NCBI GenBank assembly: GCA_036679495.1 | Contig: JAZDDE010000080.1 | Location: forward strand, 1 to 53,924 | Length of the DNA stretch: 53,924 nucleotides | Source: Gemmatimonadota bacterium | GTDB taxonomy: Bacteria > Gemmatimonadota > Gemmatimonadetes > Palauibacterales > Palauibacteraceae | Reading direction: 5' to 3' | Part shown: piece by piece, positions 8,740 through 14,912 of the stretch | Layout of the letters: the number at the start of each line of letters is the position of its first letter | How positions within the stretch are numbered: the stretch's first letter is position 1 | The notes under the pieces: model-generated | What the model saw: the letters and a program-made list of their open reading frames with translations, nothing else | Database searches by the model: none | Told to the model about the DNA's origin: nothing | Translations under genes and position numbers: made by a program

Positions 8740-9219
8740 TCAGTCCGGAGAAACCGTGAACGTGAACGGCAGCTCGTACAGACCTGGGTCGTCGTTCAGC
8801 AGGCTAAGCAGAACCCGAAAATCGAAGCTCTTGGTATGCTGGCCCCGGGCAGCGCCGTCGTCCAGCAGAACCGGCACGACCGGCATCGCAATCAGACCGG
8901 CGGCGTCCATGTCGTACTGGAGGTCGCTGGCCGGCTTTACGCCCGCCACGCCGTCTTTGTTGAAGACAGCCTGATCGGCAACCACGGTGACGTCATGCAG
9001 AATGTTTCCGCGGTGCGTCAGAGTGAAGCCGGTGACATCCTTGAATCCGGCGGTGAAGTCGGCGTCGGCAGCAGCACCGAAGTCGACGTCACCCGTGAAG
9101 CTGATGAACAGAATCGACGGGACGTTAATCCGCGCCGTCTGGCTGGCAGTCGTCTGGGCCTGCGCACTTGTCGCGAACAACAAGCTTCCGAGCACCAGAG
9201 TAGTAAGAACTCTCTTCAT
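8740..9219 (-). CDS. Putative major pilin/fimbrial subunit
   Basis: Start re-assigned to ATG 9219 (SD GAGG); 159 aa; signal peptide MKRVLTTLVLGSLLFATSAQA; mature N-terminus QTTASQTARINVPS has an alternating donor-strand-like pattern; first gene of the operon; no Cys. Confidence 0.7.
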   Translation of the reverse strand: MKRVLTTLVLGSLLFATSAQAQTTASQTARINVPSILFISFTGDVDFGAAADADFTAGFKDVTGFTLTHRGNILHDVTVVADQAVFNKDGVAGVKPASDLQYDMDAAGLIAMPVVPVLLDDGAARGQHTKSFDFRVLLSLLNDDPGLYELPFTFTVSPD

Positions 9220-9335
9220 TTCGACCTCTTTGACCGAGGGTTTGGAACCGTGCCACCCCGTTTGGTGACGTTGGTCACGCCGCGGCCACGTTCCGAACGA
9301 AAGAACGCACGTGCTCAGGCGCATGTCGGTCGTAG

Positions 9336-9355
9336 AGCAATTGGTATACCAATTG
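9336..9355 (-). promoter_or_regulatory. Sigma54-type promoter TTGGTATA-CCAA-TTGCT inside a perfect 18-bp palindrome CAATTGGTATACCAATTG (9338-9355)
   Basis: Matches YTGGYRYR-N4-TTGCW with GG-N10-GC spacing on the minus strand, about 115 nt upstream of the pilin ATG; the plus-strand reading ends TTGA and lacks the -12 GC. Confidence 0.65.
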
Positions 9356-9547
9356 ATTCGACGATACCGAGGAAGTCGAGGCCAGCGTTCGGCGGAGATG
9401 CGGAACAACGGCCCGGTCGGTGCGCGATCGGCGAGCTGCCAGAGTCGTCGCGTGCCGGTTGGCGATCGCGGCAGACAAGACCAACCAGTCGCATGACTGT
9501 CGCGCTCTGCCATACAGTGACGCAGTTTCCGCCGGCGTACATGATGT

Positions 9548-9712
9548 TCAGGTGACTGCGTGCTGCTGATTGCTTGCGATCTCGACTAGCCGATCTCGAA
9601 ACCACTCGTCGACCCCTCTTGCCTCTTCTTCCGCCGCCCGCTTCATCAGGTTAAACTCTATGGTGGTGCAGTTGATTTGAACGATTTCGGACTGGTGAGT
9701 GCCACCGTTCAT
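9548..9712 (-). CDS. 54-aa small protein, ribbon-helix-helix-like (CopG/Arc/MobC pattern); absent from ORF track
   Basis: Hand translation: MNGGTHQSEIVQINCTTIEFNLMKRAAEEEARGVDEWFRDRLVEIASNQQHAVT; G-run SD 6 nt upstream of ATG; strand-helix-turn(G)-helix pattern. Confidence 0.55.
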   Translation of the reverse strand: MNGGTHQSEIVQINCTTIEFNLMKRAAEEEARGVDEWFRDRLVEIASNQQHAVT

Positions 9713-9799
9713 GAAGATCCCCCCCGCTGGGCTTTGTTGATCTCACGGCTTCTGCTTACGGCGTGCCATACAGTGCCGTACGGATACAGAATCTGGTAG

Positions 9800-9815
9800 A
9801 GCAAGAGGTATACCG
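9800..9815 (-). promoter_or_regulatory. Second sigma54-type promoter CGGTATA-CCTC-TTGCT upstream of the 54-aa gene
   Basis: GG-N10-GC spacing and TTGCT -12; 9796-9814 is identical to 9332-9350 at 17 of 19 positions. Confidence 0.55.
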
Positions 9816-9868
9816 CTGGTAAACCGGCCAATACCAGCTCATTTGACCGCTCGCATTATTCGTTGCAG

Positions 9869-9892
9869 CATACTGACATGCGGTACAGTATG
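9869..9892. promoter_or_regulatory. Inverted repeat CATACTG-N10-CAGTATG, probable TetR operator
   Basis: Perfect 7-bp arms 27 nt upstream of the tetR start; TetR/AcrR regulators typically bind such palindromes at their own promoter. Confidence 0.6.
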
Positions 9893-9918
9893 GTCACTCA
9901 CTACCTCGGGTTCCGTCA

Positions 9919-10485
9919 TTGAAATCGCCGCGAAAAAAGCTTACTGAAGAGGATTGGCTGGCCCAGGCTCTGAAGACACTGGCTGCTGAAGGTGTCTCAG
10001 CGGTCCGGGTCGAGCGTCTGGCAAGTTCGCTAGGAGTCACCAAGGGCAGCTTCTACTGGCACTTCAAGAGCCACGGCGAACTCTTGGCGAGGCTTAGGCA
10101 GTATTGGGCCGACGAATATACGATTAGGGTTGATTCCTCCGAGACCCAGAGCCAGCCAGATGCCGCAGCCATGCTGCTGTGGGTTCTGAGACGGGTCACC
10201 CTGGAGGATGCAAACCGCTACGATCCCGCGATGCGAGCCTGGGGATTGTTCGATTCCCTGACCGCCGAGGCCGTGCGTCGGGTCGACGAAACGAGGCTGG
10301 CCTACGTGACGGACCTGTTTCTACGCATGGGCTTCGATCGGAACGAAGCTGATCTCCGCAGTCGCATGTCGTACTACTACGTGATCGGAGAGAGTTTCGC
10401 GGGTATCGAAAAAACTCCGGAGGATCGACTCACGTTCCTGGACCTGCGCTATCAAAGGCTCATAGACCGAGCGACTATCCGGTAA
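9919..10485 (+). CDS. TetR/AcrR family transcriptional regulator
   Basis: 188 aa; HTH GVSAVRVERLASSLGVTKGSFYWHFKS. Confidence 0.93.
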   Translation: MKSPRKKLTEEDWLAQALKTLAAEGVSAVRVERLASSLGVTKGSFYWHFKSHGELLARLRQYWADEYTIRVDSSETQSQPDAAAMLLWVLRRVTLEDANRYDPAMRAWGLFDSLTAEAVRRVDETRLAYVTDLFLRMGFDRNEADLRSRMSYYYVIGESFAGIEKTPEDRLTFLDLRYQRLIDRATIR

Positions 10486-10567
10486 GCTTGAGTCTCGGCC
10501 GACTCGTCCCTAGCTTGGCGGACTTCGCGCCGATCAGCCATAGAGCCGCCAGACCCCGGATATCGAT

Positions 10568-13412: not shown

Positions 13413-13532
13413 TATAGTGTAAGGGATAGGGATGGCGGCCCAGCGCCGCACTTGTGTGGGGAAACTTTCAGTACAGTCGAGGTGCGCCCGGCGATCGAAC
13501 TGTCGGGCAGCCGCATGGGATGGGAGGAACCC

Positions 13533-14174
13533 ATGGCCAGGCACAGATCTGCACCGAATGACCGGCTTGTCGATACCAGCGAGTTCCGCACGGAACTCAA
13601 GAATCTCGACGACGCGGCGCTTGTGGCCGAATATCTTGAAGGTCGGCGGCTGGCGTTTCACGAGCTGGCGAACCGCTACCACCAGCGCCTTCTCAACTTC
13701 ATATATCGCACGATCGGCGACCGGGACCGGGCCGAAGACCTGGTCCAAGAGACGTTCATCCGGGTGTATCGGCATCTTCACCGGTTCGATCCGACGAAGA
13801 AGTTCTCCACCTGGATCTATACGATCGCCAGCAACCTCGCGAAGAACGAGCTCAGGAACCGGGCCCGCAATCCGTTGGTGCTGTTCCAGGCGATCAAGAA
13901 AAACTGGGATGCCGATCATCGGCCGCTACAGTGGGAGGACAGCACCTACAAGCCTGACGATCTGTTTCGTAAGCGGCATCTTCGTGAACAGGTCGAGTCT
14001 GCCGTCGCGGAGCTACCGGAGCACCACAAGGTTGTCTTCGTTCTCCGTGAGATGGAGGGAAAGACGTACGAGGAGATCTCCGAGATCACCGGCGTCACAC
14101 TTGGAACCGTGAAATCGCGTCTCAATCGGGCTCGCAATCGGTTCGCTCAGATCATTGGCCCAATGCTTGATTGA
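13533..14174 (+). CDS. ECF RNA polymerase sigma factor (RpoE/SigW-like)
   Basis: Start set at ATG 13533 (SD GGAGG); AEDLVQETFIRVY, FSTWIYTIASN, region 4 YEEISEITGVTLGTVKSRLNRAR. Confidence 0.95.
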   Translation: MARHRSAPNDRLVDTSEFRTELKNLDDAALVAEYLEGRRLAFHELANRYHQRLLNFIYRTIGDRDRAEDLVQETFIRVYRHLHRFDPTKKFSTWIYTIASNLAKNELRNRARNPLVLFQAIKKNWDADHRPLQWEDSTYKPDDLFRKRHLREQVESAVAELPEHHKVVFVLREMEGKTYEEISEITGVTLGTVKSRLNRARNRFAQIIGPMLD

Positions 14175-14231
14175 TTGGACGCGCTGAGGGATCTTCACGC
14201 CGGACCGGGGGCGGGTGAGTCGAGAATTCTG

Positions 14232-14260
14232 GGGGTGGTCTGGGGACCGCCCCTTTTTTT
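14232..14260 (+). terminator. Intrinsic terminator between sigma and anti-sigma genes
   Basis: Stem GGGGTGGTC/GACCGCCCC, 4-nt loop, followed by T7. Confidence 0.7.
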
Positions 14261-14284
14261 GTCCAAGGCTCCGCCTATTCGGCT

Positions 14285-14310
14285 GGGAACACGCAACGCA
14301 TGCACGCGTA
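14285..14310 (+). promoter_or_regulatory. Putative ECF-type promoter GGGAAC-N16-CGTA upstream of the anti-sigma gene
   Basis: Motif lies just after the terminator, 41 nt before the ATG. Confidence 0.4.
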
Positions 14311-14351
14311 TGATGGGTCTGTAGAATCAGACCTAAAGGACTCGGAAGGGC

Positions 14352-14912
14352 ATGAACTGCAAGGCTTTTCTAGATACATACACAGAGTATAGAGACGGTC
14401 TGCTGGATGATCTGCACCTCGCGCAGGCGGAGCAGCATCTGGCGACGTGTGAGTCGTGTACGCGGTACGACCGCGTGTTTTGCCGCGGTATCGAACTGCT
14501 CCACACGCTTCCCACTGCCGAATCCGCCGAAGACTTCATGCCCCGTTTGCGCCACCGCCTGTACAACGTCGATGACGGCATCTATCAGGCGTCGCGGCGT
14601 CAGCTTGGCGGCAGCGCGGCTCTAATAGGGGTCGCCTCGGTCGGATTGTTGGCCCTGCTATGGCTTCCGTTCACCACCCGCACCTCAGTTGAGTTTCAAC
14701 TACAGGCCGTGGCGGCGGAGCGGCTGGCCGAGTCCGCGGCTTCACGAGGGCCGGCCCTCTTTCTGTCGGAGCCCATCGTGGCTACCGTAGGCTCGCAGGA
14801 CGGATCGGATCTTGATGCCAAGCTGACTGAATGGCCTCCGCGAAAACACGTACATCCCACGATTCTCCTCGGGTCAAGGAACGCGCAGCTGGTAGCTGTC
14901 GCGGTCGACTGA
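14352..14912 (+). CDS. Zinc-finger (ZAS, zf-HC2) anti-sigma factor with one TM helix
   Basis: MNCKAFLDTYTEYRDG...HLATCESC (HxxxCxxC); TM ALIGVASVGLLALLWLPF; follows the ECF sigma. Confidence 0.88.
   Translation: MNCKAFLDTYTEYRDGLLDDLHLAQAEQHLATCESCTRYDRVFCRGIELLHTLPTAESAEDFMPRLRHRLYNVDDGIYQASRRQLGGSAALIGVASVGLLALLWLPFTTRTSVEFQLQAVAAERLAESAASRGPALFLSEPIVATVGSQDGSDLDAKLTEWPPRKHVHPTILLGSRNAQLVAVAVD

Follow-up and report, generated by a model that had tools for sequence, protein, structure and literature searches.

Ribbon-helix-helix (RHH) proteins form a very large superfamily in which small regulators are already well known, and the gene described here adds one more protein to it. The closest sequence relatives of its product are NikA-like or MobC-type proteins (PF21983; R64 NikA, PDB 2ba3). 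Small RHH proteins of the NikA/MobC/TacA-like branch are usually encoded on mobile elements. PcfF has been described as a related RHH relaxosome accessory protein (PMC6514445), and MobC of RA3 as an RHH relaxosome accessory protein that also autoregulates (PMC4175270). Arc of phage P22 and CopG are minimal RHH repressors of 45-53 aa, which share the strand-helix-helix layout with the protein reported here and are similar in size (54 vs 53 aa). Arc reads DNA via Gln, Asn and Arg residues on its strand and via a basic N-terminal arm. For surface-fibre systems, AmrZ (AlgZ) of Pseudomonas aeruginosa is named as an RHH protein that regulates type IV pili and twitching in a passage of PMC10418997 that cites Baynham et al. 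2006. The present protein can be likened to this transcription factor by fold, AmrZ being among its structural matches; any pilus-regulatory role of the present protein is putative. Unlike the present protein, AmrZ regulates globally, comprises about 108 aa with extended termini and is encoded away from the pilus genes, and the two show no sequence relationship.

The gene is located in a window of 53,924 nt, which denotes the whole stretch of DNA that was analysed and corresponds to contig JAZDDE010000080.1 of a Gemmatimonadota bacterium (assembly GCA_036679495.1). The window genome is a MAG of 3.7 Mb with 62% GC and 89% completeness. A preliminary description had proposed a hidden 54-aa RHH gene at 9548-9712 as a dedicated regulator of the adjacent pilus locus. 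This ORF is indeed present on the minus strand, reading from 9712 to 9548 with an ATG at 9712-9710, 54 codons and a TGA at 9550-9548, and its product MNGGTHQSEIVQINCTTIEFNLMKRAAEEEARGVDEWFRDRLVEIASNQQHAVT matches the translation given there exactly. An in-frame TGA lies ten codons upstream of this ATG, and no other possible start codon intervenes. Orthologs were found in the congeneric MAG G001 and on one metagenome contig, L049, resulting in a set of three together with the window. The SD-like G-run that had been pointed out corresponds to a Shine-Dalgarno-like purine run, GGGGGGGA (9718-9725, minus strand), which precedes the ATG by 5 nt; its counterparts are a canonical GGAGGA with identical spacing in G001 and GGGGGAGA in L049. 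The gene was hidden in that it fell below the ORF track of the preliminary description, but its G001 ortholog had already been listed as a hypothetical protein by public gene callers. As 54-codon open frames are common in DNA of 62% GC, the ORF by itself is no evidence for a gene. It is raised above chance because it is intact in three lineages and because its translation has significant similarity to an RHH family. Based on the orthologs, the profile homology and an RHH-like model, the feature is designated as a small acidic RHH gene, and the claim that the 54-aa ORF is a real RHH-fold gene is, taken alone, very probably correct.

When 1.8 billion representative proteins were searched exhaustively with HMMER, two distant relatives were recovered, with E-values of 3e-5 and 1e-4; one of the two clears the Pfam cut-offs for both NikA-like and TacA1. 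In addition, a profile of 10 unrelated NikA-like RHH proteins, from which the ORF orthologs were excluded, was searched against the 56,428 six-frame stop-to-stop ORFs of at least 40 aa in the ORF's own genome. The ORF ranked second among these 56,428 sequences (E=2.4e-5, 25.6 bits), and the next unrelated match had an E-value of 0.039. Rank 1 was taken by a basic 64-aa paralog on another contig. Alignment of the three orthologs with the NikA-like family by hhalign gave a probability of 97.5% and E=6.4e-12 over 42 ungapped columns. Features common to the window protein and the NikA-like proteins are a Q-x-x-C-T strand end, E..LM.(K/R)AA in helix A and W-(F/L)-R-D in helix B. The window protein itself has zero matches to Pfam and NCBIfam even at E<=1 and stays below the gathering cut-off of PF21983 (27 bits), for which its G001 ortholog scores 15.4 bits (E=0.021). 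PF21983 is nevertheless matched at E<=0.1 by 13 of the 14 aligned relatives and orthologs, and homology to genuine members was found by both the HMM and the hhalign comparison. A word-indexed homolog search with the single sequence as query returned only the query protein, and a scan of metagenome contigs with two peptide patterns gave zero matches. The sequence search of the PDB returned only Arc, with an ungapped alignment that covers helix A and the loop and reaches into the beginning of helix B; at E=0.05, sequence homology to Arc is not significant. The decisive argument for the ORF being coding is this homology at the family level, since non-coding DNA would not yield a translation with significant similarity to an independent protein family. 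The profile comparisons show that the small gene, as judged from its sequence, has its ancestry among small RHH proteins of the NikA/MobC/TacA-like branch.

AlphaFold2 monomer models were calculated with 4 and then with 14 aligned sequences and reached a mean pLDDT of 74 and 78.7, respectively, with values of 84-93 over residues 11-40. Residues 1-16 are modelled as extended and residues 17-29 and 34-52/53 as helices, in agreement with the strand, helix A and helix B that had been delineated by eye. This is the strand-then-two-helices layout within about 45 residues that characterizes the RHH superfamily, and the N-terminal strand stays extended and without a pairing partner, as would be expected of a single RHH chain. 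The inter-helix turn consists of G33-V34-D35 in the window protein, while its orthologs have Gly at position 31 (DGQSVEE, DGKMVEE) and the relatives have G-K-R-L-S-D. When the better model was compared with the PDB by Foldseek, ranks 1-17 were all RHH proteins, including Arc, VapB12, the N-terminal domain of NikA (2ba3), FitA, AtaR, AmrZ and TacA2; CopG, ParD, PutA and CdbA were found at lower ranks. Arc is the best structural match, with a TM of 0.73, an rmsd of 1.5 A over 40 residues and a probability of 0.97. All Foldseek E-values are >0.2 because the domain is tiny (about 45 residues), so that the structure search is supportive but not decisive. The RHH call for the 54-aa protein is supported as a predicted fold: the NikA-like profile homology and the predicted structure, in the form of a monomer model, agree with the CopG/Arc/MobC-like fold that had been suggested.

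All three orthologs have 54 codons with the same ATG and TGA and zero indels. In G001, the gene order is syntenic with the window and comprises the pilin-like gene, the ORF, a divergent TetR gene and M16 peptidase genes, so that the proposed search of related genomes for a conserved frame and synteny was answered positively. The third ortholog, P0005, is 76% identical and is encoded on the 656-nt contig L049 together with the start of the TetR gene. The non-coding flanks of the ORF show 5-10 indel events per ortholog pair. Under neutral change, the probability of finding no indel in 165 nt is about 0.019 for G001 and about 0.13 for L049, and the probability that start, frame and stop are all spared by the observed substitutions is about 0.065 and 0.14, respectively. 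The frame is intact across the three lineages at a nucleotide divergence of 16-26%.

A signal of purifying selection is absent from the two-species codon analysis of the window and G001. The nucleotide identity of the ORF (74%) is barely above that of its flanks (70-71%), the differences at codon positions 1/2/3 are flat (12/15/16), 25 codons differ non-synonymously and 3 synonymously, and amino-acid identity is no higher in the ORF frame than in the other five frames. The dN/dS of the whole ORF is 1.0 for this pair and 0.75 and 0.42 for the other two pairs, compared with 0.10-0.25 for the neighbouring genes. For the core of the ORF (residues 9-47), dN/dS is 0.32-0.73, with 0.32-0.39 in two of the three pairs, while it is about 3 for the tails; the residues that are invariant among the orthologs are located on the strand and the helix cores. 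Equal conservation in six frames and the lack of a third-position excess would also be in line with a non-coding origin, in which conserved cis-regulatory DNA or a leader RNA between the TetR and pilin promoters would have given rise to the open frame incidentally. The dS of the ORF (0.31-0.36), which is below that of the adjacent genes (0.56-0.70), may be read in the same way as a hint of constraint at the nucleotide level. A non-coding origin is very improbable in view of the significant similarity of the translation to an independent protein family, the confidently predicted RHH-like fold and the integrity of the ORF, which is improbable under neutral change. Furthermore, a search of the region against Rfam found zero RNA families, and the covariation term of RNAalifold was unfavourable, leaving an RNA structure unsupported. 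The low dS itself hints at extra nucleotide-level constraint or may be noise from the few synonymous sites, as the ORF has only about 34 of these. Taken by itself, the two-species codon analysis would wrongly have pointed to a non-gene. This illustrates that a flat two-species dN/dS can mask a real gene, which is then uncovered by homology at the family level.

Regarding its surface, the window protein deviates from its relatives. The three orthologs are acidic, with a pI of 4.3-4.9 and a net charge of -4 to -9, whereas all RHH relatives are strongly basic, with a pI of 9.5-11.9 and a net charge of +4 to +12. The relatives carry a KRGRPEL arm and a strand Arg (QFRCT). Both are missing from the window protein, which has zero Lys or Arg in residues 1-23, and its strand reads SEIVQINCT, with N or G at the position of the strand Arg (Asn14 is replaced by Gly in the orthologs). 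The helix-B N-cap is D or E in the orthologs and Ser (LSDW) in the relatives. In contrast to Arc, the window strand offers only Gln12 and Asn14, of which Gln12 is invariant in the three orthologs, as is Glu9. Gln12 could still contact bases, judging from its position on the strand. The polar or basic ribbon residues and the basic arm with which RHH proteins read the major groove of DNA are not present as a set in the window protein. The loss of basic DNA-contact residues together with the acidity makes classical RHH operator binding doubtful, and with such an acidic surface the presumed regulation of the pilus genes through DNA binding by this protein stays unproven.

The ORF is located 328 nt upstream of the first pilin-like subunit gene (8740-9219, minus strand, ATG at 9219), from which it is separated by another promoter-like box. 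This gene is the first of a four-gene fibre operon with the order pilin-like, chaperone-like, pilin-like and large usher-like; in comparisons with Pfam and NCBIfam, the operon genes were unassigned except for SdrD_B repeats. On the other side of the ORF, a divergent gene encodes a TetR-family regulator (9919-10485, plus strand; TetR_N, E=5e-11). Beyond the TetR gene follow genes for two M16 peptidases, an ECF sigma/anti-sigma pair, holA and mutS. Within about 8 kb of the ORF, no toxin, GNAT, PIN, relaxase or integrase genes were found.

The window's genome, G001 and L049 all carry the small ORF together with the TetR gene. Both are absent from a further congener, G002, where neither could be found elsewhere in the genome. 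In G002, the pilin gene and its promoter box are kept and the pilin gene is located directly beside the M16 peptidase gene. The region at 9220-10567 of the window (about 1.35 kb with the small gene and the TetR gene) represents a presence/absence polymorphism relative to positions 1833-2230 of the G002 sequence L013, in which about 200 nt of unalignable sequence lie between the pilin and M16 peptidase genes. This comparison shows that the small gene is paired with the divergent TetR gene in an accessory module of about 1.35 kb between the M16 peptidase genes and the fibre operon.

The first pilin-like gene is 89% identical in both congeners and 27-41% identical in eight other genera, and a pilin homolog is present in 25 of the 145 genomes of the order. 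The small gene occurs next to the pilin gene only in the window's genome and in G001, the L049 contig being too short to show a pilin gene. Other RHH matches in the pilin-bearing genomes of the order are never near the pilin loci. Co-occurrence with the operon across genomes, as would be expected for a dedicated cis-encoded fimbrial regulator with a role like that of PapB/PapI, was not observed. The proposal of a dedicated regulator of the pilus locus is not supported: the operon and the box exist without the gene in G002, the operon exists without the gene in eight other genera, the gene is gained or lost together with the TetR gene, and the DNA-reading face is without the basic residues of its relatives. 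The small gene is real and fast-evolving, is confined to a handful of close relatives within part of one Gemmatimonadota genus, and constitutes an optional accessory of the operon rather than one of its core regulators.

Compared with the small gene, the TetR gene recurs more widely beside the operon. A TetR homolog is located directly beside a pilin homolog on L020 of genome G007 (636-1980; 51% identity, co-directional) and on L017 of genome G096 (1501-2987; 40% identity, divergent). An RHH-like small ORF was sought in both TetR-pilin gaps and was not found. Judging from this arrangement, the TetR protein may be a more general local regulator of the fibre operon.

The affiliation to the NikA-like and TacA-like proteins also raises the question of whether the protein serves in a type II toxin-antitoxin pair as a TacA/ParD/VapB-like antitoxin or acts at an oriT as a relaxosome accessory protein. 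Many antitoxins are acidic overall, as is the window protein, the family relatives match Pfam TacA1 and NikA-like, and TacA2, AtaR, VapB12 and FitA are among the structural matches. Both functions would demand partner genes. The neighbours are pilin-like and TetR genes, no relaxase or oriT context and no toxin partner gene accompanies the ORF, and the surroundings are a conserved chromosomal neighbourhood, unlike those of NikA-like proteins. Moreover, the protein ends 7 residues past the RHH core, so that 54 aa leave no C-terminal segment for neutralising a toxin. The toxin-antitoxin and relaxosome readings were rejected because these partner genes are absent, and their probability is considered minimal.

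Upstream of the ORF, a putative sigma54-type -24/-12 box, CGGTATACCTCTTGCT, is located at 9800-9815 on the minus strand, about 89 nt before the ATG, with its GG at 9814-9813 and its GC at 9802-9801 (P1). A box of the same type, TGGTATACCAATTGCT, is located at 9336-9351 on the minus strand, about 117 nt upstream of the ATG of the pilin-like gene (P2). Both belong to a 19-nt direct repeat, GTAGAGCAA(TT/GA)GGTATACC, at 9332-9350 and 9796-9814, with 17 of 19 positions matching. On the coding strand, the repeat reads (T/C)GGTATACC(AA/TC)TTGCTCTAC, which corresponds to GG-N10-GC with TTGCT and to the -24/-12 spacing of sigma54 promoters. Compared with the consensus TGGCACG-N4-TTGCW, P2 matches at 9 and P1 at 8 of 12 positions. 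The GG-N10-GC of P1 is kept in the orthologs, with CGGTATATCTCTTGCT in G001 and CGGCATATCTCTTGCC in L049, and P2 is conserved in G001 as well as in G002, which is without the small gene and the TetR gene. In all six box copies from four genomes, GG and TTGC and their spacing are invariant. In P1 of L049, the GGTATACC palindrome is broken and the -24 element is shifted towards the consensus GGCA. The window genome encodes rpoN and nine enhancer-binding proteins, none of which is located within the window. Genome-wide, the sigma54 pattern is not enriched (22 found vs about 22 expected), and among about 20 loci with pilin homologs in other genera only two loose and unconvincing matches to a sigma54-type box were found upstream of these genes. 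From the spacing and conservation of the boxes, P1 and P2 may depend on sigma54. Concerning the candidate promoter that had been assigned to the gene, a promoter-like element does exist and is of the sigma54 type (GG-N10-GC), while a sigma70 promoter scan of the region found none. A terminator scan of the region found two weak hairpins that are not conserved.

The P2 region contains further elements. A perfect 18-bp palindrome, CAATTGGTATACCAATTG (9338-9355), overlaps P2, and since part of it is retained in G001 and G002, a dimeric factor may occupy the pilin promoter at this site. An assignment of the GGTATACC palindrome as an operator specific for the TetR/RHH module was rejected for P2, since G002 keeps the palindrome without both genes; it is also opposed by P1 of L049, which breaks the palindrome yet retains GG-N10-GC. 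Just downstream of P2, in the would-be 5' leader of the pilin gene, a terminator-like hairpin, ATGCGCCTGAGCACGTGCGT, is followed by a T-rich run (9305-9324, minus strand). A block from this part of the leader, GAGCACGTGCGTT, is conserved in G001.

A second type of repeat, TGCCATACAGTG(A/C)CG, is found at 9508-9522 and 9764-9778. The copy TGCCATACAGTGCCG at 9764-9778 (plus strand) is located between P1 and the start codon of the ORF and matches in 14 of 15 positions the copy TGCCATACAGTGACG at 9508-9522 (plus strand), which is located 26 nt past the stop codon of the ORF and about 160 nt upstream of P2. A third, inverted box core, CCATACTGTA, is found at 9884-9893 on the minus strand close to the start of the TetR gene. 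The 12-mer TGCCATACAGTG occurs three times in the whole genome, and two of these copies are the ones described here. The copy at 9508-9522 is conserved in L049 and partly in G001, and the copy at 9884-9893 is partly conserved. The CCATAC(A/T)GT boxes are candidate operators. CCATACG-like words, reminiscent of these boxes, are also present in the TetR-pilin gaps of both G007 and G096.

The usual occurrence of the branch on mobile elements raises the possibility that the ORF is an orphan remnant of a mobile-element RHH gene, either a NikA/MobC accessory gene or the head of an antitoxin gene, which came to lie beside the TetR gene, is drifting because selection has been relaxed and has no role in fibre regulation. 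Such a remnant would account for several properties of the ORF: its nearest relatives, like the paralog in its own genome, are found among IS elements or phage-like arrays of small genes, its dN/dS reaches 1.0, the basic DNA-contact residues are lost, and its distribution inside one genus is patchy. Drift does not explain that the frame has stayed intact in three lineages despite their divergence and the frequent indels in the flanks, that the core residues are conserved with a low core dN/dS in two of three pairs, or that both the Shine-Dalgarno sequence and the promoter box have been retained. In addition, the ORF has a syntenic place between the same chromosomal genes, and genes of mobile elements are absent nearby. 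We regard a drifting remnant as unlikely, though it deserves to be taken seriously.

The explanation we prefer as a whole, with a probability slightly better than even, is that a real RHH-fold gene in a TetR-linked accessory module is preceded by a copy of a sigma54-type promoter and encodes a modulator of the locus. According to this model, the small gene is probably transcribed from the sigma54-type promoter P1, and since P1 copies the promoter box of the pilin gene, the small gene would be activated at the same time as the fibre genes. The 54-aa protein would most likely be a small dimeric modulator of the locus, which might regulate its own gene or adjust the output of the TetR and pilin promoters. 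The protein may bind weakly to the CCATAC(A/T)GT boxes in the manner of Arc and CopG. Alternatively, it may act via a protein partner, because the basic DNA-contact residues of its relatives have been lost.

A more far-reaching version of the latter idea is that an RHH protein from a mobile element has turned into an acidic modulator that does not bind DNA, is expressed under the duplicated sigma54 promoter of the pilin gene and acts by protein-protein contact. This version is improbable. If it were true, the acidic protein might, for example, titrate the neighbouring TetR repressor or another DNA-binding protein, and such a titration would result in a feed-forward or feedback loop on the fibre operon of these Gemmatimonadota. 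An RHH protein without the basic DNA-reading residues of its relatives could, if functional, exemplify the reuse of this fold beyond operator binding.

For the preferred modulator model, the locus shows how a tiny regulator gene derived from a mobile element may be wired beside a surface-fibre operon by copying the promoter box of that operon. As the TetR and RHH genes form a presence/absence module within a single genus, they offer a natural comparison for the control of the fibre operon.

Some observations concern the surroundings of the relatives and of the operon. The NikA-like RHH paralog in the window's genome (C157, 7239-7433, minus strand) encodes a protein of 64 aa beginning with MAKKKRMGRPPLPESEK and with a pI of 11.9; it is located about 1 kb from an XRE-type HTH gene and near the contig end, probably in a mobile-element region. 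The distant relative P0003 (56 aa; L010, 4849-5171) lies within a run of >20 co-directional small genes and directly follows another small gene with a weak RHH_1 match, so that its locus resembles the early region of a phage carrying RHH genes in tandem. About 3 kb past the TetR gene of the window, an ECF-type sigma factor (Sigma70_r2/r4_2) is followed by a zf-HC2 anti-sigma factor (13452-14912, plus strand), a pair that represents another possible input to envelope or fibre expression.
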